A stretch of 64,000 bases of DNA from Psilocybe cubensis (Eukaryota). Below are positions 23,212 through 53,050 of the stretch, one piece after another. Where the stretch lies: NCBI GenBank assembly GCA_017499595.2, contig CM038999.1, positions 62,001 through 126,000 on the forward strand. Reading direction: 5' to 3'. The notes beneath the pieces are model-generated. The model made no database searches and was not told the origin of the DNA. It worked only from the letters and a program-made list of their open reading frames with translations. The translations under genes and the position numbers were made by a program. The first letter of the stretch is position 1, and every line of letters starts with the position of its first letter.

Positions 23212-26200
23212 TTAGACGGGCTGGTATACCACCAGCGCAGTGCACTCATCGGTGACTCCGGGATGGGAAAGCAGGATATCGACCACAGATTGGTGTCCAA
23301 TTCTCCGCGCCCATTCCAATGCTGTATAGCCATTGCAATATCGCAAATTTACGTTGATCGCGGGAATTGTCAGGAGGCGTCTTACGACCTCAGTGTGTCC
23401 ATTCCAAGATGCGCATACCAATGCTGTCAATCCACGTTTTGCTGCTCGGAAATTGACATTCACAGCTGGGAAACCAAGAAGCGCATCCACAACTGAAATG
23501 TGGCCCCGGTCCGAAGCATAGATAAGAGCTGTATATCCGTCAATATCTTGTGCATTAACATCTATACCAGGCATTGATAAAAGACGTTTTGCAATGTCAG
23601 CATGGCCATTCCAGGATGCAAACATGAGCGCTGTTTTCCCGCGATTGGTTTCGATATTAACCTCCACCCCTTGGAAACCAAGGATAGCATCCACGATATA
23701 ATCGTAACCGTTATACGAAGCATATATGAGAGCCGTCCATCCGTCATTAAACTGTGTATTGACGTTTGTTTCAGTGACAGAGAGAAGGCAATTGGCAATG
23801 CTAAGGTTAGCATTGCTTAATGCCCATGCAAGTGCTGTATCTCCACATTTGTTTTGGATATTCACGTTCACTTCTGGGAATTCAAGAATTGCTTCCACAA
23901 CAGAACAGTTGCTATTTTTTGAAGCGTGCAGAAGAGCGGTGCATCCATCGTCACATTGTGTATTGACCTTTATATTCGGCACGGACAATAGGCGCATAAC
24001 AATTTCAGGATATCCATTTTCAGATGCCCATAAAAGTGCTGTCTCGCCGACGCTATTTTGGATGTTTACATCCACGTCCGGAATACGAAGGATAGCTTCC
24101 ACGACGGAACAGTGACCATATATCAAAGCAACCATGAGAGCTGTATATCCATTTGGGCCTTGTGCATTTACATTTATTGCCGGGATGGTCAGCAGGCGCT
24201 CAACAATGTCAATATGACCATTGCGTAATGCCCATAACAGTGCTGTTTCTCCAACCTTGTTTTGTACATTTACATCCACGTCCGGAAAAGCAAGAATTGT
24301 GTCCACAATAGAACGATGACCATTGTGGGAAACATTCATCAGAGCAGTCCATCCGTCATTATCTTGTATGTTAATCTGGATTCCCTGTACCAACAGCAGG
24401 CGCTGAACAATTTCAATGTGTCCATTGCCTGATGCCCATGAAAACACGGTGTCTCCATGCGTATTTTGGATATTTACATCCACCTCCGGACAACCAAGAA
24501 TGACGTCCACAATGGAATAGTGAGCATTTTGGGAAGCACGCATGAGAGCCGTCCATCCTTCGTTATCTTGTGTATTAATCATTATTCCCGGGACGGACAG
24601 CAGGCGCTTAACAACGTCAAGGTGGTTATTTCTTGACGCCCATAAAAGTGCTGTGCCTCCACATTTTGTTTGGGTATTTACATCCACCTTGAAAAAGCCA
24701 AGAATGATGTCCACAACAGAACAGTGACCACATTTTGAAGCAGCTATCAGAGCTGACCAGCCTTGGTGATCTTGTATGTCAACCTTTATTCCCCTGACGG
24801 ATAACAGGTGCTCAACGATGTCTAGATGTCCATTGTCTAGTGCCCATAAAATCGCCGTGTCTCCGAGTGTGGTCTGAAGATTTGAATCCACCTCTCCGAA
24901 TTCAAGGAGAGCGTCTACAGTAGAAAGATGACCGTGGTACGAAGCATACATCAGAGCTGTCCATCCATTGGAATTTTGCATATTAACCTTTATTCCTGGG
25001 ATGAATAGGAGACGCTTGACGATTTCAACATGACCATTTTCTGATGCCCATGAAAGTGCTGTTTCTCCGACATTGGTTTGGATATTGACATCTACATCTG
25101 GAAAGGCAAGAATGATCTCCACAGTCGAATAGTGACCCCATCTCGAAGCATGCATAAGAGCCGTTGTTCCATAGCAATCTCCTCTATTAACATCAATTTC
25201 AGAAACTGTTAAAAGATGCTCCAGCACATCAGCATGACCTTTCCCGGCGGCGAACATGAGCGCTGTAATTCCACTGCACTTGAAACACGTGTTTCTGAGG
25301 TCCATCCCTGTTAAGAACGAATCCACAACTGAATTATCATTGCTTCCACCAGTATACGTGGCCAATGTGTAGCTGGGCTCGTTTCCCAGATTGACGTCAA
25401 TTCCAGGTACTGTTAGAAGATGTTTGACGACCTCTGTATGTCCTGCACATGACGCGAGCATCAGCGGTGTCATTCCTTCTGCATGTTCGATGTGTTTTTC
25501 TGGCGAATATCGCAATTGCCTACGAATGAACTCGTACAACCGATCTGATCCTACCATATACACATTGGGATTGATGTTTCCAGATGCCAAGAGGGTGTTC
25601 ACAATAGGAACATGGCTTTTAATGGTAGCACAGGCAAGCGCCATGGTACCCTGACCGTTTGAGATATCCACCTTGATGCTAGAAATAGGGAGAAGAGCCT
25701 TCACAATGTCATTATGGCCACGAACTATTGCAACGGAAAGTGGCGTATTCCCGCTTCTGTCCTTCATATTGGTTACTAGTCCTGGAAACTCTAGCAGCGC
25801 TTCAAGAATTCCCATAGAGTTCTTTGCTGCAGCAAGTAGAAGTGGACTGTGTCCATTGCAGTCTTGGGAATTGACGTTAATTCCTGGTGCCTGGAGCAAG
25901 AGAATGGCTACATCTGTGCGATCCTTTAAGCAAGCATACAGAAGTGGAGTGCGTCCATTTACGTCCGTGGCGTTGATATCGATATTTGGACATGCAAGCA
26001 GGGCACAGACGGCGTCGACGTGACCCATATGGGAGGCATACATGAGGGCAGTAGTGCCTTTGACATCCTGTAAGTTTGGATTTATTCTACTGGTCGAAAT
26101 GAGGGCCTGAATGACATCGACATGTCCAAGGATGGAGGAGTACATTAACGCTGACAGACCCCTTTTGTTGCACAAATTGGGATTGGTGTCTTTGCGCAGA

Positions 26201-26239
26201 GTAAGCATACTGATAATCGACTTGCGGCCTTCCTTGCAG
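23212..26239 (-). CDS. Ankyrin-repeat array (3' part of the NLR, ~27 repeats of 34 aa)
   Basis: Uninterrupted ~1000-codon frame of G.TAL..AS..GH..V..LL..P..DVN.Q repeats. The ORF-track N-terminus (MPRVCL...) is LTR sequence. Confidence 0.92.
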
Positions 26240-27054
26240 TGATAAGGCTCGCAAATGAGCAGGTGTAGAAAACGCGCACTAAGGCAGACGCGCGGCACTC
26301 CAGTCTAAAAATAGCGCATACCAACCACATGGGCCGAGCGCACGGCATCAGCCGGCGTTGACTTGGCAGACACAGACTCGCGAAATAAGTGTACCGCACC
26401 GGGAAAATAAGTTGAGCAGGGACTCGTATCAACACATAAACCCAGAAAACATGGGCGCACTGTTGCCTGCAACGACCCCCGTATGAAACGAGACATATAC
26501 GCCAGGCTAGAAGTCTAACCGTGAGGAGAAATGCAGGAAAAGACGACGGACTCACGCTCTGCCCTGCCCAAGCGCCTAAACATTAAACCTGTAATTATCA
26601 CCCGCACTTCCAGCATTGGGTACCGAGCACAAACGTGTGCAATCACGCACTGGTGCGGATCAATGTGGGCGCGCACGGACGCGCCTCAAAGCATATAAAA
26701 GCCAGCCTAAGAAAGCAGAGGAGGGCAAGTAATCCCCGTGAGAGCTTCTATTGAGTAAAACGAGCTTGCCTTGCATTGCTTAGAAAAGATTGTGCACAGT
26801 TGTTTTGAGCATTGAGCCAGCATTGAACGCTGTTTGATAAAAATTTGATAAATCGGCATTGCATTGAAACAACTTGGAGCCTATTGCACGAAACTACCTA
26901 AATCGTAGATACTCATAATCTAAAAAAATATCGTAAAAACCTAAATATACGCTTATCCCTCCGAACTCAAAACCTCACTCACCAAATAACAAATTTGGTG
27001 AAGTTAGTGTGTGAAATCGAGTCATTCCAGACTCGCACTACACGAACCACTTCA
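26240..27054 (+). repeat. LTR 1 (815 bp)
   Basis: TGATAAGG...CCACTTCA; TATAAAA at 26694-26700; appears identical to LTR2 and LTR3. Confidence 0.96.
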
Positions 27055-27056
27055 TC

Positions 27057-27073
27057 TGGAGCCCACCGCGAGG
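27057..27073 (+). promoter_or_regulatory. Primer binding site (probably tRNA-Lys)
   Basis: TGGAGCCCACCGCGAGG, 2 nt after the LTR; TGG pairs with tRNA CCA. Lys identity inferred from the GGGCU-CCA 3' end of fungal tRNA-Lys. Second copy 36334-36350. Confidence 0.75.
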
Positions 27074-27447
27074 GGGGGTTGATTTAGATTCGGATAAACA
27101 TATATTGAAAAAGAAAACTCACGTTTTCAAAAATACCAAAAGCGACCAAAGTACCTGCTGAGGAAGCACCCCGGCGAAGCACACGAGAGAACGTTGCAAA
27201 GAACACTGCGCAGTCCTATTCGTTAGCAGAAGCCCGAGCACTTGCTCAAAAACAAAAAGCAGAAGCCACTGCTACCAAACCAAAAGCTAGGAGATCAATC
27301 CTAAGTAAAAAGCAGCCGTTAAAAGAGCTCGCAACCGCGCTAACTGAAATCGAAAGAACTGAGTTAAACGCATCAGCGGAAGAGTCATTTTATCAAACTG
27401 CTTCTGAAGAGATAAACCCACAATTTACGGTCACAAAGACATACAAA

Positions 27448-28830
27448 ATGAAAGATCTACCTACCACTAAAGAAAGGAGTGCGCCTAAATTTAATGAAAG
27501 CGAACCCACAGAGTTGTTAAGGTACCTAGAGGAGGTAGAAGAGTTGTTCAAAAAGTATGATGTAACTGAAGAAAAAGATAAAAAGAAGACAGCCTGTAAA
27601 TACGCGCCGGCGGCCACAGAGGCGGAATGGAAAGCGTTCAGTTCTTATGACAAAGGGACGTGGATAGAATTCAAACGAGACCTGATCGCCAGTTATCCAG
27701 AAGTGGTGTTGCTGCATAGAGGTTCGATTGCAACACTGGATAAATTGTGCAAAACCTACAAAGGAAATAACCAGTTGGAATCCAACGAAAGCACCCGCCT
27801 AGCAGCTTTCGTAAGACCTTTTCGCGCAGAAGCAGTAAAGCTTCTCAAGGATCCTGCGTTGGTATCCAACCGAGACCTGGTGACAAGGTTCATGGGATGT
27901 TTAAGTGACGAATTTGCGAGAAGAGTTAGCATCAAATTAGACTCTGACTCAGACACGAAAAATGCGATTAGAAAACTCACTGCTGCGGCACCCGCTGGGG
28001 ATGGAATTCCCCTAATCGAAGAATCGGCCTTCATCAGATGGGAGGACCGCCACAGCTTGCCTGATGTAATAGCAGCTGCTACCAATATCGCGGAAATGGG
28101 GGCTTGGTCACGTACGGGTGAGACTCGAGTAGTACCCAACGAACAACGCACATATGGGGCTGATCAGCTAGCTAGCACGAACCGCTCCGAGACCACTGTA
28201 AAATTGGAAGAAACGATTGCGCAACTCGCGGATACGGTACTGAACAGTGAGAAGCAACGGGCGGCGGAATATAGGCAACTGCAGGATGCACAGATGAGAC
28301 AGTATCAAGAGTTTCAAAGCTTTATGTCATCGTTCAGGCAAAATACGAACATGAACTCATCAGCGCCAGTTGGTAACAACTATGGGGCGCCGAGGGTAAG
28401 AACAAATCAGAATAATGGTTGCTACTATTGCAAAGAAGAAACACACCATATCTACGAGTGTCCCTACATCAAAAAGCATCTGGAACTTAAGTGGATCATA
28501 AAAAATCACGACAACCACATTAGGTTGCCGGGAGGTTCACAGATTCATACAGATGGCGTGAAATCTCGCAAAGACATAGTTGAACAACAGAACTATAAAA
28601 CACCAGGGGTGATACCAGCAGCAAAAATCAGTCAGATGTATAACCACCAAGAACGAGACTCACCAATGGACGAAGCTCACTACAGACTTCACAGGCAGTA
28701 CGAGCTTTCGAAATCGCTGAGATCGTTAACGGAAAACTTTGGTGAAGATGCATTGGAAGCAGTGCTAGAAGAGAGGCGGCGTTATGCGGTTAATGAAGAA
28801 GAAGAGCCAGCCCTGGCAAATTTTCCTTAA
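27448..28830 (+). CDS. gag: Gag, copy 1 (frame is open from 27109)
   Basis: 460-aa ORF after the PBS; RSAPKF N-terminal motif; CX2CX4HX4C zinc knuckle CYYCKEETHHIYEC. Confidence 0.92.
   Translation: MKDLPTTKERSAPKFNESEPTELLRYLEEVEELFKKYDVTEEKDKKKTACKYAPAATEAEWKAFSSYDKGTWIEFKRDLIASYPEVVLLHRGSIATLDKLCKTYKGNNQLESNESTRLAAFVRPFRAEAVKLLKDPALVSNRDLVTRFMGCLSDEFARRVSIKLDSDSDTKNAIRKLTAAAPAGDGIPLIEESAFIRWEDRHSLPDVIAAATNIAEMGAWSRTGETRVVPNEQRTYGADQLASTNRSETTVKLEETIAQLADTVLNSEKQRAAEYRQLQDAQMRQYQEFQSFMSSFRQNTNMNSSAPVGNNYGAPRVRTNQNNGCYYCKEETHHIYECPYIKKHLELKWIIKNHDNHIRLPGGSQIHTDGVKSRKDIVEQQNYKTPGVIPAAKISQMYNHQERDSPMDEAHYRLHRQYELSKSLRSLTENFGEDALEAVLEERRRYAVNEEEEPALANFP
28818..28824 (+). promoter_or_regulatory. 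Predicted -1 ribosomal frameshift site gag/pro (A AAT TTT)
   Basis: X XXY YYZ heptamer in gag phase one codon before the stop; the -1 frame is open into pro. Copy 2 at 38095-38101. Confidence 0.8.
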
Positions 28831-28838
28831 GTTCAAGG

Positions 28839-29867
28839 ATGGGGGCCCATCAGCCTAGGCGCACCTCACCTAGGTTCAATAAACAGCCTGAGCAGCCCCT
28901 TGAGAACGTAGAAAAAGAGGAGAATAAACTAGAACAAGCATCTACACAACCGGTAACATCGACCACCGAGCCAGCCGTCGATAGACAACCAAAAAGAAAA
29001 GAATTACCCTACATTGATGTTCCCCCTCTGAGCGAAGTACCACGGCCTATAGCCGACGCTCGACAGAACTGGGTAACACCGCCAAAAGGAAACGGTAGCC
29101 TGTATAATATCAATTCGCCGATAGAACAACAGGTCAACACGGAAAGCCTACACGAGAAAGCACTAGAGGCCGAGGTCACGCTTACTGTGCGAGAAATCCT
29201 CGGCAGTGCACCAGCCATTCGAGAAAAACTGAAGAAAGCCATTACACCGGTTAGAAAGCCAGTAACACCAATCGAGCCTGTGGCAGCATTCATGCTAGCG
29301 GGGGACGACAGCGGAAGCCTGAAAGCGGAGCACAAGGTGGGCGGGGATCCATACCTACAGCTATACCAGCTAGGGGAAACGGAGTTACCCACCGCCACGT
29401 ATGCAGGAAAAGAAGCAGAAAATCTGCGCGCGCTCTGGCCCAAGGTGAATGGGGTAGAAAGCGTGGAAGCAATTTTAGACAGCGGCTCTCAGATTGTGTC
29501 TATGGCAGAAGAAGTGGCGCTGCGAACAGGATTAAGTTGGGACCCAGACATCGTAATCAGCATGGAAAGTGCGAATAAGTCTATCAATAAGACACTAGGC
29601 TTAGCAAGAAACGTACCGTTTACGTTTGGAAATGTAACAGTATATTTACAAGTTCATATCATAAGGAATCCAGCATATACAATACTGTTGGGGCGCACAT
29701 TCGATTCGCTAACTCGCTCAAATGTACAGTCTGAAAATGATGGGTCCGCCACAATCAAATTGGAAGACCCAAACACAGGAAGAAAAGTAGTGGTGCCCAC
29801 CTTTGAAAGAGGGAAGGGTCCGCATCAGGTTGCAGAAGAAAGAAAACGCAAAGCTGAGGGTTTTTAA
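28839..29867 (+). CDS. pro: Aspartic protease ORF, copy 1
   Basis: AILDSGS catalytic motif and ILLGR motif; in the -1 frame relative to gag. Confidence 0.9.
   Translation: MGAHQPRRTSPRFNKQPEQPLENVEKEENKLEQASTQPVTSTTEPAVDRQPKRKELPYIDVPPLSEVPRPIADARQNWVTPPKGNGSLYNINSPIEQQVNTESLHEKALEAEVTLTVREILGSAPAIREKLKKAITPVRKPVTPIEPVAAFMLAGDDSGSLKAEHKVGGDPYLQLYQLGETELPTATYAGKEAENLRALWPKVNGVESVEAILDSGSQIVSMAEEVALRTGLSWDPDIVISMESANKSINKTLGLARNVPFTFGNVTVYLQVHIIRNPAYTILLGRTFDSLTRSNVQSENDGSATIKLEDPNTGRKVVVPTFERGKGPHQVAEERKRKAEGF
29858..29864 (+). promoter_or_regulatory. Predicted -1 ribosomal frameshift site pro/pol (G GGT TTT)
   Basis: Heptamer immediately before the pro TAA; the -1 frame is open through pol. 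Copy 2 at 39135-39141. Confidence 0.8.
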
Positions 29868-32800
29868 ATCACCTCGAGGATGGTCTAAAACAATCCCTGT
29901 TTGGTCAGATTCCAGGGGATAACGGAGAGGTGGCGGTCGTCTTTGAACTAGACGAACGAAACCAGGAACTCACAGTACAAGCATACCAGACAAAAACGGG
30001 CAGTTTCTCAAAGAATGAGGTGCGGGACGCATTTCTCTCTCAAGTTCTGGATCACAAACCGATGGATAGCAAGTCAAGAAACAGATTAACGCAGTATTTC
30101 CAAGGAAAAACTCACGAAGTATCAGCGAGGCCCGCTAAACCGCAGCCCACAGTAGTGGAAACGCGACAGACAAGGCTACTGGCCACCTACATGGGTAAAA
30201 AGAAATATAAACCCGTGGCACAAAAAGTCAGACCAATATTTGCGGACCTACCTGAAGAATTTAGGATAGTCCGGGACATTAAAGGCGACCCACTACAAGG
30301 GATGCCCCTTCTACCCACGCAACCACGGGAGTTTGCGCCAACAGGCCGCTATACCCAGGAACGAAAGGACGCAATGGATAAAGTCCATAAGGAAGGTTTC
30401 TTATGGCCTGAAGAACGCAAGCTAGTACATAATATAATCATGAATCAAGAACAAGCTTTTGCCTGGGACGATACGGAAAGAGGACACTTCAAAGAGAAAT
30501 ACTTTCCATCAATTAAGATACCCACGGTAGAACACACACCATGGGTATATAAAAACATACCTATTCCCCATGGCTTGTATGATGAAGTGTGTAAAATCAT
30601 CAAGTCCAAGCTGGCGTCGGGCGTATACGAGCTGTCAAACGCATCATATCGCTCAAGATGGTTCACAGTTCTAAAAAAGGACGGCAAGAGTCTTCGGATT
30701 GTCCACAGCCTGGAACCACTAAACGCTGTCACGATCGCGCACTCGGGAGTGCCACCGGGTACGGAAAGTTTAGCAGCACATTTTGCAGGCCGGGCGTGCG
30801 GGGGCATGTTCGACTTATACGTCGGTTACGATGAGCGAAAAATCGATGAGAAATACCGTGATATGACCACCTTCCAGACACCGTTTGGAGCAATGAGATT
30901 GGTTACTTTGCCTATGGGCTGGACCAACTCAGTACCCATATTTCACGATGATGTGACTTACATACTGCGAGACGAAATACCACATGTAACAGTACCATAC
31001 ATCGACGACGTAGCAGTCAGAGGGCCGGAGTCAAGATATGAGCATGAAGGAAGGTATGAAACTATTTCGGAAAATAAGGGGATCCGACGGTTTGTATGGG
31101 AGCACTTACAAAACGTGAATAGGGTCCTCCAGAGAATGAAATATGCTGGGGGTACGTTTTCGGGATATAAATCAGTTCTGTGCGCAGACGAGATCACGGT
31201 GGTCGGGCATCGCTGTACCTACGAAGGGCGTAAACCAATCGAGGAGCGAGTAAAAACCATACTAGACTGGGGAGAATGCGAAGACCTGGGTGATGTACGA
31301 TCTTTCTTGGGCATCTGCGGCACACTAAGAGCGTATATACCAAATTACACTGAACTAGCGTGGGACCTGCAAAAGCTCACTAAGAAACAAAACCCTTTCA
31401 AATGGGGAGATGCACAGCGACTAAGCATGTCCAAATTAAAAGAGGGAGTACGCAATGCGAAATGTTTGTTGCCAATAGACTACGAAAGCGGCGGCAACGT
31501 GGTTCTGGCCGTCGACGCCTCCTACATGGCTGTAGGTTTCTACATCTATCAAGAACCTGTAACAGAGAAAGACGCTATTAGATATGTAAAATTCGGTTCA
31601 ATCACGCTACAGGACCACGAAGCTAGATACTCACAGCCAAAGCGAGAGCTGCTAGGTCTCAAAAAGGCATTAAAGGAAAACAGAGAGTTGCTAATCGGGT
31701 GTCGCAAACTGATCGTGGAAATGGATGCTAAATTCATAGACGGCATGCTGCGCAATCCGGACATGATGCCTAACGCTACAATCAATCGGTGGATAGAAGA
31801 GATTATGTTATATCACTTCACCTTGCGACATAAAGCAGGGAAGACTTTCGGCCCCGATGGTTTGTCAAGAAGAAAAGCTCAGCCCACAGACGTTCCGCCC
31901 CGAGTACCGCCTGAAGAACAGACTGAGTGGGAGCTGCCTCCTACAAGCATGTTTGACGAGTTAGAACCAAAACCGTTGCCGGTGCAGGACTTTGCAGCAC
32001 AAATAGATATGAGGGGGGGATACTTACATGAAATAAAACTAAGTCCCACAAAGCCAAGTAATTGCCAAGACAGGCCAAGGAAACTCACGGAGTTCTTAGA
32101 CAACATTGAAGAACTAGGTGGAAAACTCCGTGGTGCAGCACGTTCAGTAGAAGATTTCAGACAAGAATTGGAAAGAGCCGACGAGTTTCGCGCTATGGAG
32201 CATGCCGCGTTTAACGTATGGTTGAAAAATCACGCAGGTACCCTAGATAAACCTCAACAGGTGTTGTTCCAACAATTAGTAGCAACCCTAGTTCTGCCGG
32301 AAGAGACAGTAGAAACCCAGAAATATGACGAGGAGCACAGAACCATGACCGCGGCGCGACAAGAGAACTTGTTGCCGGAAGTAAGGGAATGGTTGGAGAA
32401 TAAACACAAAATCAGCCGATCACTCACAGAACGTGACAAAGTAAAATTTGAACGTTTTGCACGGAGGTTCTTCCTTTTTGAAGGTCGACTGTATCTGCGA
32501 AGCTACAGCGCGGAACATCGACTCGTAGTAAGCAAAGATCGAAGAACTTACATGATGATAGCGGCGCATGACCATTGCGGCCACCGAGGCTTCTATGCCA
32601 CTAATCAATTATTGGTACAACGGTTCTGGTGGCCCGAGATGGAGAAAGACATAGCCAGGTATGTCAAAACATGTCATAGGTGTCAGGAAAGACAGCTAAC
32701 TATGCTGAAAATCCGGCCCACCTTGACGCATACCCCGTCATTATTCCAAGTCCTGCATACAGACTGCATGAAAATGACTCCACCGTCCAACGGTTGTTCA

Positions 32801-33763
32801 ACCATTGTTCATGGCCGGGACAACATGACCGTCTGGGTAGAAGGCAGAGGGTTGCGACGAGAAACGGGGCGAGCAATCGGGCAATGGTTGTGGGAAGATA
32901 TTGTGTGTCGCTGGGCGTGTTTATCTGTGATCGTCACTGACAACGGGACACCGTTTGTGGCGGCACTTAAGTGGCTAGAGACAAGGTACGGTATTAAGAA
33001 CATTCGCATATCACCGTATAACTCTAAAGCCAATGGAAAAATTGAACGCCCACACTGGGACATAAGACAAATGTTGTACAAAGTGTTGGGACCTAAGAAC
33101 TTACACAAATGGTTCTGGTTCCTCCATTTTGTCTTTTGGGCGGATAGAGTCACCGTCCGCCGACGTCTGGGTTGCTCACCCTACTTTATGGTGACGGCAG
33201 CCCACCCAACGTTGCCCCTAGATGTACAGGAAGCAACGTGGTTAGTAAAACCCCCAGAGGGTATGCTGAGTGAGGAGGAACTCATCACCTTCAGAGCGAA
33301 GGCTCTAGCAAAACATAAAGCGCAACTAGAACTGATGAAAGCTAAGATAGACCACGAAAAGTTAGCCAGATTGCGGAAGTACGAAGAGGATAACAAGGCT
33401 GTGATTAAGGACTACACCTTTGGTCCAGGCGACCTAGTGCTCATACGAAACACTGCAATTGAAGGGTCCTTGGATAGAAAGCTGAGAGCTAGATACCTTG
33501 GCCCAATGATCGTGGTACGCAGGACGCAGGGCGGCTCGTATATCGTAGCTGAACTGTCCGGCGCAGTATGGCAAAATAAGGTTGCTGCATTTAGGGTGGT
33601 CCCCTACTACGCAAGGGAGAAGTTAGTCCTGCCTAAACCAATTGAGGATTTGATTGACGTTTCAGAAGCAGGGCTGTCAAAAATAGAAGCAGCACCAGAA
33701 GAACAATTTACGGGTGCACCGGACTGGGCACATTTACGACTGGATATGACTGATGATAGTTAG
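29861..33763 (+). CDS. pol: Pol (RT, RNase H, integrase), copy 1
   Basis: LPMGW and YIDD (RT); VDASY (RNase H); H-H-C-C zinc motif, TDNG and KIER (integrase DDE); YLGP motif. No chromodomain evident. Confidence 0.96.
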   Translation, partial: FLNHLEDGLKQSLFGQIPGDNGEVAVVFELDERNQELTVQAYQTKTGSFSKNEVRDAFLSQVLDHKPMDSKSRNRLTQYFQGKTHEVSARPAKPQPTVVETRQTRLLATYMGKKKYKPVAQKVRPIFADLPEEFRIVRDIKGDPLQGMPLLPTQPREFAPTGRYTQERKDAMDKVHKEGFLWPEERKLVHNIIMNQEQAFAWDDTERGHFKEKYFPSIKIPTVEHTPWVYKNIPIPHGLYDEVCKIIKSKLASGVYELSNASYRSRWFTVLKKDGKSLRIVHSLEPLNAVTIAHSGVPPGTESLAAHFAGRACGGMFDLYVGYDERKIDEKYRDMTTFQTPFGAMRLVTLPMGWTNSVPIFHDDVTYILRDEIPHVTVPYIDDVAVRGPESRYEHEGRYETISENKGIRRFVWEHLQNVNRVLQRMKYAGGTFSGYKSVLCADEITVVGHRCTYEGRKPIEERVKTILDWGECEDLGDVRSFLGICGTLRAYIPNYTELAWDLQKLTKKQNPFKWGDAQRLSMSKLKEGVRNAKCLLPIDYESGGNVVLAVDASYMAVGFYIYQEPVTEKDAIRYVKFGSITLQDHEARYSQPKRELLGLKKALKENRELLIGCRKLIVEMDAKFIDGMLRNPDMMPNATINRWIEEIMLYHFTLRHKAGKTFGPDGLSRRKAQPTDVPPRVPPEEQTEWELPPTSMFDELEPKPLPVQDFAAQIDMRGGYLHEIKLSPTKPSNCQDRPRKLTEFLDNIEELGGKLRGAARSVEDFRQELERADEFRAMEHAAFNVWLKNHAGTLDKPQQVLFQQLVATLVLPEETVETQKYDEEHRTMTAARQENLLPEVREWLENKHKISRSLTERDKVKFERFARRFFLFEGRLYLRSYSAEHRLVVSKDRRTYMMIAAHDHCGHRGFYATNQLLVQRFWWPEMEKDIARYVKTCHRCQERQLTMLKIRPTLTHTPSLFQVLHTDCMKMTPPSNGCSTIVHGRDNMTVWVEGRGLRRETGRAIGQWLWEDIVCRWACLSVIVTDNGTPFVAALKWLETRYGIKNIRISPYNSKANGKIERPHWDIRQMLYKVLGPKNLHKWFWFLHFVFWADRVTVRRRLGCSPYFMVTAAHPTLPLDVQEATWLVKPPEGMLSEEELITFRAKALAKHKAQLELMKAKIDHEKLARLRKYEEDNKAVIKDYTFGPGDLVLIRNTAIEGSLDRKLRARYLGPMIVVRRTQGGSYIVAELSGAVWQNKVAAFRVVPYYAREKLVLPKPIEDLIDVSEAGLSKIEAAPEEQFTGAPDWAHLRLDMTDDS

Positions 33764-33866
33764 GACTCGGACATGAGCTACGTCGATGGTGGTCCAACTA
33801 TTATATTTGCAAAAACTCCTACGTAGGACAATAAGAGAAAACCAAATACAGTGGGTGCAAGAGGAT

Positions 33867-35185
33867 TTAAACTACAGGACCTTTGCCCTTCACGATGCGA
33901 AGTTGTTCGGCAATGTGTTGAAGAGTGGTGTCCAGCTGTTGCTGTGCAAACGCTACGCGAAATTCGTAATCCGCTTGCTCTAAACGGAGTTGTGCGAGGC
34001 GTCGCTCTGCAGCCTGCACTTCAAAGTTGGGAGAGGGGTCTGAGCAGAAATAGATAAGTCTGCAATCGGAACGGAAAGCAACAAGAATAAAAAGACATAC
34101 CATGGAGGACAGGAGGAATCTCCTGCCGGGCCTTTTTATTTGCATAGTGACGAGCCTTAGCGGCTTGAGGGGTGGATGGGTCAACACCGGCATCCTCATA
34201 CGATAATAACATGGTCTCAGCCCGCTGACAGGCACGTTAGGCAAATCTGAGGGTGAAATAAGATCCGCGAGGCATACCTTGGGGGCTTTTGAGCTACCTT
34301 CACTCGGGGCCACATTGCAGGTGATGATCTCGACAGAGCTATCATCAACTGACATTGCCTGGAGGTCACGGATAAGCTTAGTATACCATGCGCCAACCGC
34401 ACCACGACGAACCTCATCGATGTCATCCTACAGTGTAAGTCAGCACGATAGCACGTTGGAGGGGTACAGGGGCAACCTACTTCAGAGTCGATGATCGCTT
34501 TGGACTTTGGGGCCTTACTGCCTTTGTGTTTCTAAAAAGAAATAAAAACCAAGAGTGTCAGACACTACGACATAAGCGAATATGGAACAAGCCAGACGAA
34601 CCTTGGATTTGGAGGGTCGCACGGGTGCCTCTGTAACAGGACCTACAGGGACAACGGGCGGCGCAATGATGGGCGTAGAAACGACCACAGCAGTAGACTC
34701 AGTGCTGCCCGCAGAGAAGGCTGCGGATGGTGGAGCACTGGTCGGTGCTGGTCCCTCGCTTTTAGGTGCATTGCGTGCTTCCTGGATGAAACGACAGATC
34801 TCGCGGATCACTTGGAACTCCCGAGTATGCAAGGAAAGGTTTTGAGGGTGCGCATTGTGGATGTTGTGGTAGGCTTTGCGGATCTCGAAGCACAAGTTGG
34901 TGGCACCTTTGTTACGCTCGACCTTGGAAGCAGTCCATGTGGCTTCCTGAGAGAAGCACACAACAGGTCAGTAAGGAAAACGCAGGGTGGAAGCATAGAA
35001 CCAGCAACACAACCACTTACCACGAAACGCACGGCCGAATTTAACATGGTAATCAGCCCGGGGGCCTGAGCAATGTCCTTGATTACTGCAGTACCAGTCT
35101 TCCCACCAGCCACTACCAAGGGTACGGCAGCGGCCGACCGAGCATCCTCGACAGAGGGGACCAAGGGTTCAACGGGGACCGACAT
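33867..35185 (-). CDS. Spliced antisense accessory gene of the retrotransposon, 7 exons, 317 aa, unknown function (copy 1)
   Basis: Exons 35185-35021, 34946-34602, 34531-34481, 34427-34413, 34358-34278, 34224-34101, 34039-33867 = 954 nt, ATG to TAA with no internal stop. Six GT-AG introns of 53-74 nt, most with CTRAC/CTAAG branch-like sites. Confidence 0.82.
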
Positions 35186-35502
35186 GAAACAGGGTATGCT
35201 TTGGGAATCAAGGAAAGGAACAAGGGGGCACGACGACTCACCAAGAGGCAAGTTGCCCTCCCTTTTATCCTCTACCGCGGCCTTTAGTTGTTCCCAAGGA
35301 AAGGCGACGGGAAACCGTTGTGGGACAAGTTTCAGGAAAGAAAAAGAAGAGGGCAAACGATGACTCACGGAGAGGAGTAGGTCTCAGCCGGATGGCGCAA
35401 GACACGCCAAACCACGACCCAAGAACGACAGACCTCAGAAAAAAAAAAAAAAAAAAGGCAAGCACTGTACGAGATGTGCCTGACTGGGGACAGTCAGTAT
35501 GC

Positions 35503-35516
35503 AAGTTGGGGGGGGA
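35503..35516 (+). promoter_or_regulatory. Polypurine tract
   Basis: AAGTTGGGGGGGGA abutting LTR2; second copy 44780-44793. Confidence 0.85.
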
Positions 35517-36331
35517 TGATAAGGCTCGCAAATGAGCAGGTGTAGAAAACGCGCACTAAGGCAGACGCGCGGCACTCCAGTCTAAAAATAGCGCATACCA
35601 ACCACATGGGCCGAGCGCACGGCATCAGCCGGCGTTGACTTGGCAGACACAGACTCGCGAAATAAGTGTACCGCACCGGGAAAATAAGTTGAGCAGGGAC
35701 TCGTATCAACACATAAACCCAGAAAACATGGGCGCACTGTTGCCTGCAACGACCCCCGTATGAAACGAGACATATACGCCAGGCTAGAAGTCTAACCGTG
35801 AGGAGAAATGCAGGAAAAGACGACGGACTCACGCTCTGCCCTGCCCAAGCGCCTAAACATTAAACCTGTAATTATCACCCGCACTTCCAGCATTGGGTAC
35901 CGAGCACAAACGTGTGCAATCACGCACTGGTGCGGATCAATGTGGGCGCGCACGGACGCGCCTCAAAGCATATAAAAGCCAGCCTAAGAAAGCAGAGGAG
36001 GGCAAGTAATCCCCGTGAGAGCTTCTATTGAGTAAAACGAGCTTGCCTTGCATTGCTTAGAAAAGATTGTGCACAGTTGTTTTGAGCATTGAGCCAGCAT
36101 TGAACGCTGTTTGATAAAAATTTGATAAATCGGCATTGCATTGAAACAACTTGGAGCCTATTGCACGAAACTACCTAAATCGTAGATACTCATAATCTAA
36201 AAAAATATCGTAAAAACCTAAATATACGCTTATCCCTCCGAACTCAAAACCTCACTCACCAAATAACAAATTTGGTGAAGTTAGTGTGTGAAATCGAGTC
36301 ATTCCAGACTCGCACTACACGAACCACTTCA
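35517..36331 (+). repeat. LTR 2 (shared central LTR)
   Basis: Preceded by a PPT and followed by a PBS; no TSD around it. Confidence 0.96.
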
Positions 36332-36724
36332 TCTGGAGCCCACCGCGAGGGGGGGTTGATTTAGATTCGGATAAACATATATTGAAAAAGAAAACTCACG
36401 TTTTCAAAAATACCAAAAGCGACCAAAGTACCTGCTGAGGAAGCACCCCGGCGAAGCACACGAGAGAACGTTGCAAAGAACACTGCGCAGTCCTATTCGT
36501 TAGCAGAAGCCCGAGCACTTGCTCAAAAACAAAAAGCAGAAGCCACTGCTACCAAACCAAAAGCTAGGAGATCAATCCTAAGTAAAAAGCAGCCGTTAAA
36601 AGAGCTCGCAACCGCGCTAACTGAAATCGAAAGAACTGAGTTAAACGCATCAGCGGAAGAGTCATTTTATCAAACTGCTTCTGAAGAGATAAACCCACAA
36701 TTTACGGTCACAAAGACATACAAA

Positions 36725-38107
36725 ATGAAAGATCTACCTACCACTAAAGAAAGGAGTGCGCCTAAATTTAATGAAAGCGAACCCACAGAGTTGTTAAGGT
36801 ACCTAGAGGAGGTAGAAGAGTTGTTCAAAAAGTATGATGTAACTGAAGAAAAAGATAAAAAGAAGACAGCCTGTAAATACGCGCCGGCGGCCACAGAGGC
36901 GGAATGGAAAGCGTTCAGTTCTTATGACAAAGGGACGTGGATAGAATTCAAACGAGACCTGATCGCCAGTTATCCAGAAGTGGTGTTGCTGCATAGAGGT
37001 TCGATTGCAACACTGGATAAATTGTGCAAAACCTACAAAGGAAATAACCAGTTGGAATCCAACGAAAGCACCCGCCTAGCAGCTTTCGTAAGACCTTTTC
37101 GCGCAGAAGCAGTAAAGCTTCTCAAGGATCCTGCGTTGGTATCCAACCGAGACCTGGTGACAAGGTTCATGGGATGTTTAAGTGACGAATTTGCGAGAAG
37201 AGTTAGCATCAAATTAGACTCTGACTCAGACACGAAAAATGCGATTAGAAAACTCACTGCTGCGGCACCCGCTGGGGATGGAATTCCCCTAATCGAAGAA
37301 TCGGCCTTCATCAGATGGGAGGACCGCCACAGCTTGCCTGATGTAATAGCAGCTGCTACCAATATCGCGGAAATGGGGGCTTGGTCACGTACGGGTGAGA
37401 CTCGAGTAGTACCCAACGAACAACGCACATATGGGGCTGATCAGCTAGCTAGCACGAACCGCTCCGAGACCACTGTAAAATTGGAAGAAACGATTGCGCA
37501 ACTCGCGGATACGGTACTGAACAGTGAGAAGCAACGGGCGGCGGAATATAGGCAACTGCAGGATGCACAGATGAGACAGTATCAAGAGTTTCAAAGCTTT
37601 ATGTCATCGTTCAGGCAAAATACGAACATGAACTCATCAGCGCCAGTTGGTAACAACTATGGGGCGCCGAGGGTAAGAACAAATCAGAATAATGGTTGCT
37701 ACTATTGCAAAGAAGAAACACACCATATCTACGAGTGTCCCTACATCAAAAAGCATCTGGAACTTAAGTGGATCATAAAAAATCACGACAACCACATTAG
37801 GTTGCCGGGAGGTTCACAGATTCATACAGATGGCGTGAAATCTCGCAAAGACATAGTTGAACAACAGAACTATAAAACACCAGGGGTGATACCAGCAGCA
37901 AAAATCAGTCAGATGTATAACCACCAAGAACGAGACTCACCAATGGACGAAGCTCACTACAGACTTCACAGGCAGTACGAGCTTTCGAAATCGCTGAGAT
38001 CGTTAACGGAAAACTTTGGTGAAGATGCATTGGAAGCAGTGCTAGAAGAGAGGCGGCGTTATGCGGTTAATGAAGAAGAAGAGCCAGCCCTGGCAAATTT
38101 TCCTTAA
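36725..38107 (+). CDS. gag: Gag, copy 2
   Basis: Same translation as copy 1. Confidence 0.92.
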   Translation: MKDLPTTKERSAPKFNESEPTELLRYLEEVEELFKKYDVTEEKDKKKTACKYAPAATEAEWKAFSSYDKGTWIEFKRDLIASYPEVVLLHRGSIATLDKLCKTYKGNNQLESNESTRLAAFVRPFRAEAVKLLKDPALVSNRDLVTRFMGCLSDEFARRVSIKLDSDSDTKNAIRKLTAAAPAGDGIPLIEESAFIRWEDRHSLPDVIAAATNIAEMGAWSRTGETRVVPNEQRTYGADQLASTNRSETTVKLEETIAQLADTVLNSEKQRAAEYRQLQDAQMRQYQEFQSFMSSFRQNTNMNSSAPVGNNYGAPRVRTNQNNGCYYCKEETHHIYECPYIKKHLELKWIIKNHDNHIRLPGGSQIHTDGVKSRKDIVEQQNYKTPGVIPAAKISQMYNHQERDSPMDEAHYRLHRQYELSKSLRSLTENFGEDALEAVLEERRRYAVNEEEEPALANFP

Positions 38108-38115
38108 GTTCAAGG

Positions 38116-39144
38116 ATGGGGGCCCATCAGCCTAGGCGCACCTCACCTAGGTTCAATAAACAGCCTGAGCAGCCCCTTGAGAACGTAGAAAAAGAGGAGA
38201 ATAAACTAGAACAAGCATCTACACAACCGGTAACATCGACCACCGAGCCAGCCGTCGATAGACAACCAAAAAGAAAAGAATTACCCTACATTGATGTTCC
38301 CCCTCTGAGCGAAGTACCACGGCCTATAGCCGACGCTCGACAGAACTGGGTAACACCGCCAAAAGGAAACGGTAGCCTGTATAATATCAATTCGCCGATA
38401 GAACAACAGGTCAACACGGAAAGCCTACACGAGAAAGCACTAGAGGCCGAGGTCACGCTTACTGTGCGAGAAATCCTCGGCAGTGCACCAGCCATTCGAG
38501 AAAAACTGAAGAAAGCCATTACACCGGTTAGAAAGCCAGTAACACCAATCGAGCCTGTGGCAGCATTCATGCTAGCGGGGGACGACAGCGGAAGCCTGAA
38601 AGCGGAGCACAAGGTGGGCGGGGATCCATACCTACAGCTATACCAGCTAGGGGAAACGGAGTTACCCACCGCCACGTATGCAGGAAAAGAAGCAGAAAAT
38701 CTGCGCGCGCTCTGGCCCAAGGTGAATGGGGTAGAAAGCGTGGAAGCAATTTTAGACAGCGGCTCTCAGATTGTGTCTATGGCAGAAGAAGTGGCGCTGC
38801 GAACAGGATTAAGTTGGGACCCAGACATCGTAATCAGCATGGAAAGTGCGAATAAGTCTATCAATAAGACACTAGGCTTAGCAAGAAACGTACCGTTTAC
38901 GTTTGGAAATGTAACAGTATATTTACAAGTTCATATCATAAGGAATCCAGCATATACAATACTGTTGGGGCGCACATTCGATTCGCTAACTCGCTCAAAT
39001 GTACAGTCTGAAAATGATGGGTCCGCCACAATCAAATTGGAAGACCCAAACACAGGAAGAAAAGTAGTGGTGCCCACCTTTGAAAGAGGGAAGGGTCCGC
39101 ATCAGGTTGCAGAAGAAAGAAAACGCAAAGCTGAGGGTTTTTAA
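38116..39144 (+). CDS. pro: Aspartic protease ORF, copy 2
   Basis: Same translation as copy 1. Confidence 0.9.
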   Translation: MGAHQPRRTSPRFNKQPEQPLENVEKEENKLEQASTQPVTSTTEPAVDRQPKRKELPYIDVPPLSEVPRPIADARQNWVTPPKGNGSLYNINSPIEQQVNTESLHEKALEAEVTLTVREILGSAPAIREKLKKAITPVRKPVTPIEPVAAFMLAGDDSGSLKAEHKVGGDPYLQLYQLGETELPTATYAGKEAENLRALWPKVNGVESVEAILDSGSQIVSMAEEVALRTGLSWDPDIVISMESANKSINKTLGLARNVPFTFGNVTVYLQVHIIRNPAYTILLGRTFDSLTRSNVQSENDGSATIKLEDPNTGRKVVVPTFERGKGPHQVAEERKRKAEGF

Positions 39145-43040: not shown

Positions 43041-43143
43041 GACTCGGACATGAGCTACGTCGATGGTGGTCCAACTATTATATTTGCAAAAACTCCTACG
43101 TAGGACAATAAGAGAAAACCAAATACAGTGGGTGCAAGAGGAT

Positions 43144-44462: not shown

Positions 44463-44793
44463 GAAACAGGGTATGCTTTGGGAATCAAGGAAAGGAACAA
44501 GGGGGCACGACGACTCACCAAGAGGCAAGTTGCCCTCCCTTTTATCCTCTACCGCGGCCTTTAGTTGTTCCCAAGGAAAGGCGACGGGAAACCGTTGTGG
44601 GACAAGTTTCAGGAAAGAAAAAGAAGAGGGCAAACGATGACTCACGGAGAGGAGTAGGTCTCAGCCGGATGGCGCAAGACACGCCAAACCACGACCCAAG
44701 AACGACAGACCTCAGAAAAAAAAAAAAAAAAAAGGCAAGCACTGTACGAGATGTGCCTGACTGGGGACAGTCAGTATGCAAGTTGGGGGGGGA

Positions 44794-49990: not shown

Positions 49991-50039
49991 TCGACATCAA
50001 CACCGATCAAGCACCTATCTGTCAACACAATACACGCAA

Positions 50040-52744: not shown

Positions 52745-53050
52745 ATGAAGTTTTCAATCTCCTTCTTCTTGGTGGCAGTCACCTCTGTCGCATTTGCTGC
52801 TGAGAGCATTGATAAAGCGACAGATTTATCCGCCTTGTCTGACGCTGAACTCGCAGCTCAGGGATGCTATTGGGATGGAACTGCACCGTTCTGCAACGGT
52901 TCTTGCAAAGGAAAAAATGTAGGCTGGTCGGGTGACGCTCAAACATGCATAGGGTGCAATAGCGATTACGTCGAAACCGAAAGGTCTGATTGCGGGAATG
53001 GCGCCTGCTGCTGGACTGGCCAGAAGGTCCTTTGCTGCCAAGATGTATGA
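52745..53050 (+). CDS. Secreted cysteine-rich prepropeptide, 101 aa (paralog 1)
   Basis: Signal peptide MKFSISFFLVAVTSVAFA, acidic pro-region, 10-Cys domain QGCYWDGTAPFC...CCWTGQKVLCC. TATA ~52613; 5'-UTR intron 52668-52731. Confidence 0.92.
   Translation: MKFSISFFLVAVTSVAFAAESIDKATDLSALSDAELAAQGCYWDGTAPFCNGSCKGKNVGWSGDAQTCIGCNSDYVETERSDCGNGACCWTGQKVLCCQDV

Follow-up and report, generated by a model that had tools for sequence, protein, structure and literature searches.

Two putative programmed -1 frameshifts beside predicted kink-turn hairpins in a fungal Ty3/Gypsy retrotransposon

MMTV and HTLV are retroviruses that use two -1 frameshifts, and the known natural 3′ elements that stimulate -1 frameshifting are for the most part pseudoknots, simple stem–loops, and sites to which viral proteins bind. 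In some retroviruses with two -1 events, the first is the more efficient, and a pseudoknot is described at the MMTV gag–pro junction; the usual spacer between heptamer and structure is 5–9 nt, and in cardioviruses and arteriviruses frameshifting is protein-activated and requires a viral protein (PMC5009743; here and below, a PMC number stands for part of the article's text). Novikova et al. (2010) reported one or two ORFs in most full-length elements, and the word "frameshift" appears nowhere in the main text of that study, its supplementary structural table aside (PMC2864245). In the articles that literature searches turned up, titles and abstract openings mention neither a natural kink-turn (k-turn) stimulator of frameshifting nor a three-frame fungal Gypsy element; the terms "k-turn" and "L7Ae" are missing from the first 300,000 characters of PMC5009743. 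The definition and folding rules of the k-turn have been published (PMC4382518, PMC8191799), U.U at pair 3 being the pair selected by Snu13p and 3n=G the ion-folding class (PMC4382518, PMC8191799, PMC1874613).

The element analysed here lies in a window of 64,000 nucleotides (the whole stretch of DNA examined), and its family, which is found in mushroom-forming fungi, very probably relies on two backward slips of the ribosome, each of one base, to produce its three proteins, much like some retroviruses. Like MMTV and HTLV, it has gag, pro, and pol in three frames, two heptamer sites, and three predicted nested products, and its first site is more often strict than its second (28/30 vs 8/42 clusters). 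Unlike them, it has a Ty3-like reverse transcriptase (RT), a fungal host, and no env-like family match, and its conserved candidate stimulator is a k-turn hairpin, not a pseudoknot. It would be a non-retroviral case of the double-shift layout, which is easily mistaken for decay because gene callers split or mis-join such elements.

The tandem insertion and its Ty3/Gypsy identity

Judged by its repeats, domain order, and RT, the element is a young Ty3/Gypsy LTR retrotransposon of non-chromovirus type in an agaric-type fungal host, and a retrovirus is excluded. Its features outside gag, pro, and pol, and the gene that it interrupts, are as follows.

23212–26304, minus strand: host ankyrin-repeat gene, interrupted by the insertion; the ankyrin-like reading resumes past 45608
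26240–27054, plus strand: 5′ LTR, 815 bp, TG...CA
27057–27072, plus strand: primer-binding-site-like motif, 2 nt past the LTR, common to related families (L028, L030)
33867–35185, minus strand: antisense gene predicted within the element, with some 335 codons in six coding exons
35496–35516, plus strand: polypurine-tract region, preceding the middle LTR
35517–45608, plus strand: middle LTR, second internal unit, and third LTR, with a period of 9277

The middle LTR occupies 35517–36331 and the third 44794–45608; the three copies are 100% identical, and no other LTR matches were found anywhere in the genome. A 4-bp target duplication, GCAG, stands on either side of the whole tandem (26236–26239 and 45609–45612), and the two units, compared over 26240–36331, differ at two positions (30497 and 30511), both outside the junctions. 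Because the LTR occurs at only three places in the genome and the units are 2 nt apart, the arrangement is one recent tandem insertion. The two window copies are therefore not independent, and the agreement between them, to which the initial annotation had appealed, proves little: the junctions are indeed identical (the heptamers of the second unit are at 38095 and 39135), but as evidence this identity loses its value.

The terminal repeats (TG...CA), target duplication, primer-binding site, and polypurine tract, together with the domain order of protease, RT, RNase H, and integrase, are those of Ty3/Gypsy (Metaviridae) elements. In Pfam, RVT_1 matched at E = 2.9e-5, under its curated cut-off, and the RNase H and integrase zinc domains exceeded theirs. 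The RT–RNase H region was nearest to the Ty3 type (E = 1e-25 for Ty3, 1e-12 for foamy virus, and 4e-8 for MLV), so that the description "retrovirus-like" in the initial annotation holds for the layout but not for the relationship, the RT not grouping with those of retroviruses. The chromodomain of chromoviruses was not found after the integrase, no such family matching pol at E ≤ 0.1, and the RT is only 26–28% identical to those of the gag -1 pol and single-ORF families in the same genome. The element resembles the Ylt1-like and SN_1006 fungal non-chromovirus lineages in its basidiomycete hosts, the lack of a chromodomain match, and the CCHC motif in Gag (PMC2864245), Ylt1 (9453 bp, with LTRs of some 715 bp; PMC5014426) in its size of about 10 kb and its long LTRs, and Tca3 in its 4-bp target duplication (PMC4139406). 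The 12 long homologs did not include Ylt1.

The 10-nt core of the primer-binding-site-like motif had 110 matches in the genome, compared with 23 for a control, and no primer tRNA was found in the nine loci scanned out of these 110 core matches. The predicted antisense gene has five GT-AG introns of 53–74 nt, four of them with a branch-point match, and its exon products match the antisense-strand DNA of L028, L029, and L030; exon 2 had no usable match in the ESM Atlas. Between pol and the LTR, where this spliced gene lies, four frames of at least 150 codons had no match in Pfam, and no env-like family was matched in the element.

Three reading frames and two slippery heptamers

The coding regions, given from stop to stop, and the two heptamers are the following.

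27109–28830, plus strand: gag, first AUG at 27448 (460 aa), with a capsid-like domain and a CCHC knuckle
28797–29867, plus strand: pro, -1 to gag, with a spacer region and an aspartic protease (LDSGS); Pfam PF13975 and PF13650 above their cut-offs
28818–28824, plus strand: slippery site 1, A AAT TTT, in the gag frame, one codon ahead of the gag stop
29858–29864, plus strand: slippery site 2, G GGT TTT, in the pro frame, with the pro stop directly after it
29858–33763, plus strand: pol, -1 to pro, with RT (YIDD), RNase H, and integrase

Each frame is -1 relative to the preceding one, both heptamers are in frame at the ORF ends, and the earliest in-frame ATG of pol is at 30062, all of which agrees with the initial annotation, where three ORFs in successive -1 frames, canonical heptamers at their ends, and a pol without a nearby AUG had been noted. 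The gag frame stays open for 113 codons upstream of its first AUG. No Pfam family matched gag, and Foldseek alone gave no match for its model at E ≤ 0.001. In a fold search, residues 1–220 of the model aligned with the capsids of dArc1, Ty3, and Copia (Z 8.0–8.3, rmsd 4.4–7.4, 150–167 residues aligned) and, within the same Z range, with the PEG10 capsid; the top seven rows were all retroelement capsids, at Z scores that are modest for a helical model. As modelled, the product is a Gag with a capsid fold and a zinc knuckle. Homologs of pro numbered 517 and ranged from 189 to 604 aa. An in-frame ATG of pro that the initial annotation did not mention lies at 28839, 8 nt past the gag stop.

Both window heptamers have the strict form X XXY YYZ and lie in the upstream frame within the overlap, as in a canonical -1 signal. 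Of the 55 gag/pro overlaps, 52 contained a strict heptamer, where chance would give 0.5, the chance rate being taken from strict in-frame heptamers in pol bodies (63 in 59,879 codon positions). By cluster, 28 of 30 were strict at site 1, the remaining two having G GAU UUC; at site 2, a strict heptamer stood beside the k-turn in 8 of 42 clusters, G GAU UUU in 19, and only a U-run in 15. The heptamer of site 1 in the window, A AAT TTT, is also found in L028, L029, and L030. Genome-wide, a loose heptamer-plus-strand pattern gave 47 matches vs 57 for the control, with no excess beyond the five element sites.

Among the best 80 of 564 metagenome loci, the gag/pro junction was -1 in 52, broken or otherwise arranged in 11, and off the contig in 17, and the pro/pol junction was -1 in 68, broken or otherwise arranged in three, and absent in nine. 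Both junctions were -1 in 47 of these 80 and none was fused, in a sample whose search profile, made from stand-alone pro-sized proteins, is biased towards the split layout. Two intact relatives in the same genome, with only 61–63% DNA identity in pro, have retained both junctions, with identical heptamers. The initial annotation had proposed two programmed shifts instead of decay, which conservation across the family should bear out and in-frame junctions in other copies would contradict; conservation in these diverged relatives strongly supports the proposal, and no fused copy appeared among the best 80.

Predicted kink-turn hairpins downstream of the two sites

A hairpin with the sequence features of a k-turn is predicted after each heptamer.

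28831–28907, plus strand: predicted k-turn hairpin 1, directly 3′ of the gag stop; C stem 28831–28834 with 28904–28907, bulge 28835–28837, G.A pairs 28838–28839 with 28902–28903, U.U 28840/28901, NC stem 28841–28846 with 28895–28900
29869–29933, plus strand: predicted k-turn hairpin 2, 3′ of slippery site 2; C stem 29869–29875 with 29927–29933, bulge 29876–29878, G.A pairs 29879–29880 with 29925–29926, U.G 29881/29924

In single-sequence folding, the pairs of hairpin 1 had probabilities of 0.85–0.98, and the C stem of hairpin 2 had 0.99–1.0 for six pairs and 0.52 for the last. The NC stem of hairpin 2 is weak in the window element, its pairs reaching at most 0.02, so that single-sequence folding does not predict it; a model built from 31 other loci detected hairpin 2 at E = 0.014. 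The z-scores from single-sequence folding lay between -1.3 and +0.8 and were uninformative. The 3-nt bulge, the tandem G.A/A.G between two stems, the C-G at the -1 pair, and the non-Watson–Crick pair 3 are those of standard k-turns, and the first three are shared with Kt-7, box C/D, U4 snRNA, and the SAM-I riboswitch (PMC4382518, PMC8191799, PMC1874613). Unlike standard k-turns, the motif lies within coding sequence right after a slippery site, has, at bulge position 3, U in most elements but G in roughly one in three, and matches no Rfam family, a search of 26200–36400 giving nothing at E ≤ 5.

A k-turn test, devised after the sequences had been seen, was passed by 47 of 55 junctions at site 1 (30/35 clusters) and 72 of 74 at site 2 (42/42 clusters), against a background at same-phase anchors of 0.15% and 0.62%, respectively, rising to 0.87% and 3.44% once the bulge filter was dropped. 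Of the eight failing junctions at site 1, six had the core with 2/4 C-stem pairs, one lacked the 5′ strand, and one was mismatched at pair 4. With the offset left free between 3 and 14 nt, the site 1 bulge lay 10 nt after the heptamer in all 49 matches; at site 2, it lay 8 or 11 nt after. In the window, the structure starts 6 nt downstream of site 1 and 4 nt downstream of site 2; the 6-nt spacing is shared by 22 of 30 clusters at site 1, and 31/42 have 4–6 nt at site 2, which we count at both sites as agreeing with a structure about 5–9 nt downstream.

The stems covary. Compensatory changes filled 42 cells at site 1 vs 13.5 after shuffling and 43 vs 12.7 at site 2, in alignments of the 30 passing site 1 clusters and of the 31 of 42 site 2 clusters with a 15-nt inner part; these shuffle counts are not probabilities because only selected clusters were aligned and relatives share ancestry. 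Pairing in the stems was 85% at site 1 and 90% at site 2, compared with 30–51% for slid partners, and RNAalifold returned the identical two stems. In the alignments of passing clusters, the G.A columns are invariant and the bulge is always 3 nt (purine-purine-U/G), while the stems vary freely. The inner loop between the stems ranges from 15 to 60 nt (two site 2 rows with inner lengths of 50–51 nt are probably mis-paired) and is also variable in sequence, which argues against a conserved pseudoknot. The -1 pair is C-G in 28/30 clusters at site 1 and 34/42 at site 2, and U-G in the rest; pair 3 is Watson–Crick in only 3/30 and 1/42. The ion-folding class (3n=G) accounts for 38/42 site 2 clusters, and the box C/D-like U.U at pair 3 for 14/30 at site 1.

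The ribosome would read the motif in one frame at site 1 and in another at site 2, and synonymous positions are fixed within it. Its Glu codon at site 1 is GAG in 30/30, compared with 38% of Glu in pol, and its Gly codon at site 2 is GGA in 39/39 Gly, compared with 42% in pol (the site 2 table includes one mis-registered row). After synonymous recoding, 13% of trials at site 1 and 46% at site 2 still passed the k-turn test, since some of the motif is already dictated by the amino acids encoded there.

A different candidate stimulator was the inverted repeat GATGGG/CCCATC at 28838–28851, which the initial annotation had noted after the first site. The repeat is present, but such a role for it does not hold: its hairpin starts 13 nt after the heptamer, has a pairing probability of 0.00–0.01 when 28825–28912 is folded, has a similar counterpart in only 2/30 clusters, and, in competition with the conserved k-turn, would engage the G.A pair of the latter. 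It does form when only 28831–28880 is folded.

Proposed mechanism and alternative explanations

We consider two successive programmed -1 shifts, stimulated by k-turn hairpins in a Ty3/Gypsy element, to be the best explanation and a likely one. Sequence comparison shows the frames and heptamers, the conservation, the covarying stems, and the fixed spacing; from these we infer the shifts themselves, the folding of the motif into a k-turn, and its role as the stimulator. One genomic RNA would give Gag of 460 aa from the first AUG, Gag-Pro of 806 aa, and Gag-Pro-Pol of 2105 aa. With the slippery heptamer in the ribosomal P and A sites, the base of the hairpin would stand 4–6 nt downstream at the mRNA entrance, built as a standard k-turn from a canonical stem of 4–7 bp, a bulge of 3 nt (purine, then mostly A, then U or G), tandem G.A/A.G pairs, and another stem beyond them. 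The kink may form with Mg2+ (3n=G in most site 2 elements), or a host protein of the L7Ae family may hold it (box C/D-like U.U pair in roughly half of those at site 1); it would resist unwinding and so promote the slip. Binding of a host protein to the k-turns is speculative.

The k-turn fold has been deduced from sequence, and both shifts could be real with an ordinary stem–loop with an internal loop, or a purine-rich strand contacting the ribosome, in place of a kink and a protein. Sister families do have a plain hairpin of 12 or more bp that opens with a similar purine-rich strand. We give this reading a small chance, as it leaves unexplained why the G.A pairs, the 3-nt bulge, and the -1 C-G/U-G stay constant while the stems vary, and as in many loci the predicted energy of the part of site 2 above the k-turn is close to zero, which is weak for a stand-alone hairpin. 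Production of pro, wholly or partly, by stopping and restarting at an AUG past the gag stop, with the hairpin serving re-initiation, draws on an in-frame AUG within 30 nt of that stop in 25 of 30 clusters, including the window element. This AUG belongs to the k-turn strand and is absent in 5/30 clusters, among them L028 and L030, whereas the heptamer is retained in 30/30; at site 2, only 18/42 have such an AUG, and the window element has none for 200 nt, so we hold restarting to be improbable.

Much the same low standing is given to the idea that the shifts are real and the k-turns serve RNA packaging, export, or protection through Snu13p, sitting next to the slip sites only because such regions, under little constraint, can accommodate them. 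Protein binding is a general property of k-turns (PMC4382518), and box C-like RUGAUG and box D CUGA occur together in 4/30 site 1 elements; against this stand the constant 10-nt distance at site 1, where 7 or 13 would also keep the frame, and the fused relatives, in whose pro/pol linker the motif is missing (present in 0/3). Joining of gag–pro and pro–pol by introns, an explanation that the initial annotation had also raised, would suit an intron-rich host, the predicted spliced antisense gene, and the single proteins of 2350–2484 aa that public annotations contain for related elements. From 250 nt before to 300 nt after the two stops, no in-phase, stop-skipping GT-AG intron with a branch point was found (0 and 0), and splicing leaves the heptamers unexplained; we judge it very improbable. 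A chance split by deletions in a decaying copy, or an assembly error, might be suspected from homopolymer-rich heptamers and two copies that are not independent, but the junctions recur in 47 of the 80 top-ranking metagenome loci (out of 564) and in diverged families of this genome, the ORFs are intact, the LTRs do not differ, and the target duplication is clean; we regard this reading as refuted, with a negligible chance.

If the preferred reading of k-turn-stimulated shifts is true, these k-turns, which covary and keep a fixed distance to the slip site, would form a structural class of stimulator of their own, and a new one; dozens of natural variants are available, and the idea is testable with short reporters and the published folding rules. 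A broader scenario is offered tentatively, as one we doubt more than we believe: a widespread mushroom retrotransposon clade would use the k-turn as a natural -1 stimulator twice per RNA, recruit to it a host protein of the L7Ae family, either Snu13p or a ribosomal paralog, have re-used an older pro/pol k-turn in its gag/pro cassette, and have reached the MMTV/HTLV layout independently of retroviruses. A housekeeping RNA-binding protein would then set the Gag : protease : polymerase ratio. As in cardioviruses and arteriviruses, efficiency would depend on a protein-binding RNA motif whose distance to the shift site is fixed at 8–14 nt; unlike there, the candidate protein is putatively of the host L7Ae family. 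In SECIS elements, likewise, recoding is controlled through a k-turn-like motif to which an L7Ae-domain protein binds (PMC1874613), such binding being putative in our element; SECIS acts on UGA from the 3′ UTR, whereas the motif here is local and tied to a frame change.

Searches of viral contigs found no relative of pro. Thirteen unrelated viral contigs with the same heptamer and the 5′ strand had the partner strand in one case, and none of these 13 pattern-matched contigs had a gag, pro, or pol match. Two of the fused relatives read GF-F/L-G-V-E in frame, which equals the peptide predicted from a slip in their -1 sister L041. The close single-shift relatives (L032/33, L034, L035, and L037) have a long hairpin of the plain kind instead, and -1 shifting in the lineage therefore does not require a k-turn. 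The tree was made with FastTree. One genome holds four routes to pol: fused, one shift, two shifts, and a probable UGA readthrough.

Reading frames of the element

An LTR retrotransposon is present as a tandem of two units joined head to tail (LTR 26240–27054, internal region, LTR 35517–36331, second internal region, LTR 44794–45608), which repeat with a period of 9277 and differ from each other at two positions; both slippery sites under study lie in the first unit. The LTRs of the tandem are 815 bp long, identical, and of the form TG...CA. The tandem (26240–45608) splits an ankyrin-repeat gene and has a single 4-bp target duplication at its two ends; it may have arisen through unequal recombination or through recombination with cDNA of the element. 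LTR matches in the 46.6-Mb assembly were confined to these three places, indicating one recent insertion. The coding features are as follows.

27109–28830: gag, with a CCHC knuckle
28797–29867: pro, aspartic protease
29858–33763: pol, with RT, RNase H, and integrase
28818: A AAT TTT, in the gag frame, within the 34-nt gag/pro overlap (site 1)
29858: G GGT TTT, in the pro frame, within the 10-nt pro/pol overlap (site 2)

Each frame is −1 relative to the preceding one, as the initial annotation had described, and both heptamers lie in the upstream frame inside the overlaps. Its observation that pol lacks an AUG near its start also held, the first occurring only at 30062; the pro frame has an AUG at 28839. 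Among solved structures, the RT–RNase H was nearest to Ty3 (E 1e-25; MLV, 4e-8), and pol gave no chromodomain match. Gag had no match in Pfam, and its model had none in Foldseek at E<=0.001; the N-terminal part of the model (mean pLDDT 79) matched the dArc1, Ty3, Copia, and PEG10 capsids with Z of ~8.

In all 28 clusters examined (27109–27447 in the window, plus 27 related clusters), the gag frame stays open for 58–169 codons (median 110) before its first AUG, whereas the other frames have a median of 9 codons and are equally long in 1 of 56 cases. The stretch from the PBS to the first gag AUG is free of ATG in all frames in 26 of 26 clusters. A long Gag is thus probably made by non-AUG initiation, with AUU, AUA, or AUC in good context close to the start. 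Between pol and the PPT, an antisense gene of six exons and ~335 codons is predicted (33867–35185, minus strand); in the related loci L028, L029, and L030 of the same genome, the antisense strand has matches (32–58%) to the products of exon 2, 4, or 5. Additional sites resembling splice donors, at 35241, 35368, and 35832, hint that the transcript may start in the 3′ LTR.

Conservation of the two −1 junctions

The initial annotation had argued against decay of the frames from the identity of the two copies; this argument fails, because both units represent one recent insertion. The conservation among family members that it proposed to check does rule out decay. L028 and L030 retain both junctions with the same heptamers, despite amino acid identities of only 46–49% in gag and 69% in pol, and 61–63% DNA identity in pro, and even the damaged copy L029 retains both heptamers. 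Metagenomes were searched with a profile built on 64 pro proteins, namely the query plus 63 among the 120 matches listed, and 564 stretches were confirmed. Among the best 80 of these 564 loci, the gag/pro junction lay beyond the contig in 17; it was −1 in 52 of the others and broken or otherwise in 11. The pro/pol junction was −1 in 68 loci and missing from 9, with 3 broken or otherwise. Loci with both junctions −1 numbered 47, and none had a fused layout, in a sample skewed to split forms because the profile was built from pro-sized proteins. Named pro homologs came from agarics (Psilocybe, Panaeolus, Galerina, Collybia, and Armillaria).

When the loci of the genome itself were included, 52 of 55 gag/pro overlaps contained a strict heptamer (0.5 of 55 expected by chance) and the remaining 3 contained G GAU UUY. 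At the pro/pol site adjoining the structure described below, the 42 clusters (defined at 80% identity in pro) comprised 8 with a strict heptamer, 19 with G GAU UUU, and 15 with only a U-run. Since the strict heptamer is so infrequent there, the second shift is probably weaker than the first in most members. In double-shift retroviruses, the first shift is described as the more efficient one (PMC5009743). Splicing could also join the frames, but a search from 250 nt before to 300 nt after each stop found no suitable intron. The core interpretation of the initial annotation was right, the feature is real, and we regard two −1 frameshifts in this element as very likely. Ribosomes would make Gag (460 aa) from the AUG at 27448; a fraction would slip at 28818 to give Gag-Pro (806 aa), and a fraction of these would slip at 29858 to give Gag-Pro-Pol (2105 aa).

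Probable kink-turn hairpins downstream of the slippery sites

Alignment of the junctions revealed one motif common to both sites: pyrimidine-C, a purine-rich three-base run, and GA on the 5′ side of the hairpin, with GA-G on the 3′ side. In sequence, this matches the standard k-turn, in which two stems are described as being separated by a 3-nt bulge and then by tandem G.A and A.G pairs (PMC4382518, PMC8191799).

Site-1 k-turn: C stem 28831–28834/28904–28907; bulge 28835–28837; G.A pairs, U.U; NC stem of 6 bp
Site-2 k-turn: C stem of 7 bp, 29869–29875/29927–29933; bulge 29876–29878; U.G at pair 3

The hairpin bases lie 6 nt (site 1) and 4 nt (site 2) from the slippery sites; most stimulators are reported to start 5–9 nt downstream (PMC5009743). 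Plain thermodynamic folding gave pair probabilities of 0.85–0.98 for both site-1 stems, while the site-2 NC stem of the window is weak and absent from the predicted fold. RNAalifold recovered the same stems at both sites, and Rfam gave no match. The inverted repeat at 28838–28851, noted initially after the first site, is not the stimulator: it begins 13 nt 3′ of the heptamer, has pair probabilities of <=0.01 in the fold of 28825–28912, is predicted only if the sequence is cut at 28880, and has a similar hairpin in just 2 of 30 clusters.

A fixed k-turn test, composed after the data had been seen, was passed by 47 of 55 site-1 junctions (30/35 clusters) and 72 of 74 site-2 junctions (42/42 clusters), against 0.15% and 0.62%, respectively, of same-phase anchors in ORF bodies. 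Without the bulge filter, the figures were 47/55 and 73/74, with backgrounds of 0.87% and 3.44%. When the offset was left free, the bulge fell 10 nt after the heptamer in 49 of 49 site-1 matches; at site 2, 14 clusters had an offset of 8 nt and the other 28 one of 11 nt. Two-sided changes occurred in 9 of 10 pairs in the 30 passing site-1 clusters (42 cells vs 13.5 shuffled) and, for the 31 site-2 clusters whose inner part measures 15 nt, in 7 of 10 pairs (43 vs 12.7), in sets that exclude failing and longer members and whose members share ancestry. True partners paired in 85% (site 1) and 90% (site 2) of cases, compared with 30–51% for slid partners.

The reading frame of the motif differs between the sites, and synonymous positions are fixed: the site-1 Glu codon is GAG in 30/30 (38% of Glu in pol), and the site-2 Gly codon is GGA in 39/39 Gly (42% in pol). 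After synonymous recoding, the test was still passed in 13% of trials at site 1 and 46% at site 2, so that roughly half of the site-2 signal is attributable to the peptide alone. The site-2 hairpin of the window was recovered (E=0.014) by a model built on 31 others, as were the hairpins of L028 and L030, neither of which contributed to the model; some chance matches had similar scores. Of 13 viral contigs that are unrelated but share the heptamer and the 5′ strand, one has the partner strand. The pro/pol linkers of fused relatives contained no k-turn (0/3), and two of the three encode in frame the peptide expected from the slip in a −1 sister.

These observations make the k-turn a likely frameshift stimulator. 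An ordinary hairpin could do the same, and four sister families do have plain long stems, but this leaves the fixed loop unexplained; some other role for the k-turns would explain neither their fixed distance to the heptamer nor their absence from fused forms. Production of pro by stop–restart gains some plausibility from an AUG that 25 of 30 clusters have close to the gag stop. That AUG, however, belongs to the k-turn strand, and 5 of 30 clusters, including L028 and L030, lack it. For the k-turn as stimulator, extra stability would come from the kinked fold, given the k-turn folding rules, the 3n=G and U.U pairs, and site-2 upper stems whose predicted energy is about zero in many loci. According to the published rules, Mg2+-dependent folding is favoured by 3n=G, which occurs with a non-Watson–Crick partner in 38/42 site-2 and 12/30 site-1 clusters. 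U.U, the pair described as almost always selected by Snu13p (PMC1874613), occurs in 14/30 site-1 clusters. Box C/D k-turns are described as requiring protein binding to fold (PMC4382518), and a host L7Ae-family protein perhaps adds stability here too, a hypothesis that we consider less likely than not.

Origin and related families

A FastTree phylogeny was built from 41 RT–RNase H sequences, one for each cluster, with three distant Gypsy families as the root. It placed the 27 double-shift elements together with 2 incomplete ones in a single, moderately supported clade (local support 0.83), which is nested among families of the single-shift, fused, and readthrough types. Outside this clade, the pro/pol k-turn is also present in L041 (hand-labelled) and L106, suggesting that it predates the gag/pro cassette, which would have been acquired a single time. 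Retroviruses with a double −1 shift are known, and the element works like them, but it is a Ty3-like LTR retrotransposon and not a retrovirus. It resembles the Ylt1-like and SN_1006 lineages, whose full-length members are described as having mostly one or two ORFs (PMC2864245, PMC3248453). The literature searched, outside subscription journals, Repbase, and GyDB, yielded no description of a fungal double-shift layout or a natural k-turn stimulator, and the latter may be a new class of frameshift stimulator.

Related families join their frames in other ways. In the single-shift loci L032, L033, L034, L035, and L037 (gag-pro −1 pol), a plain hairpin of ~12+ bp replaces the k-turn after the slip site; L040 and L041 have the same pro/pol shift, but with the k-turn present. 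L038, L039, and L043 encode all three domains in a single frame (1891, 1511, and 2352 codons), the L043 family having six copies with equal scores. In the family of L125:4556-4564 (G000:C12), L127, L128, L129, L130, and L136, whose RT is 49% identical, gag-pro and pol share a frame with a lone TGA between them, and in all 6 copies examined CTA comes next; UGA-CUA is a leaky readthrough context. Two distant Gypsy families of the genome (L137:3040-3115 and L138:3572-3590) have the layout gag −1 pro-pol. At their gag stops are U-rich runs resembling heptamers, and a scripted scan found no k-turn.

At the host locus, an NPHP3_N-like domain (E 4e-10; 46541–47215, minus strand) lies upstream of the interrupted ankyrin gene, and the two are possibly parts of one NLR-like gene. 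The window also contains a weak G-alpha match (6654–7799, minus strand) and several diverged direct-repeat families (49123–56709 and 52720–61545; 69–91% identity; spacings 5725 and 6560).
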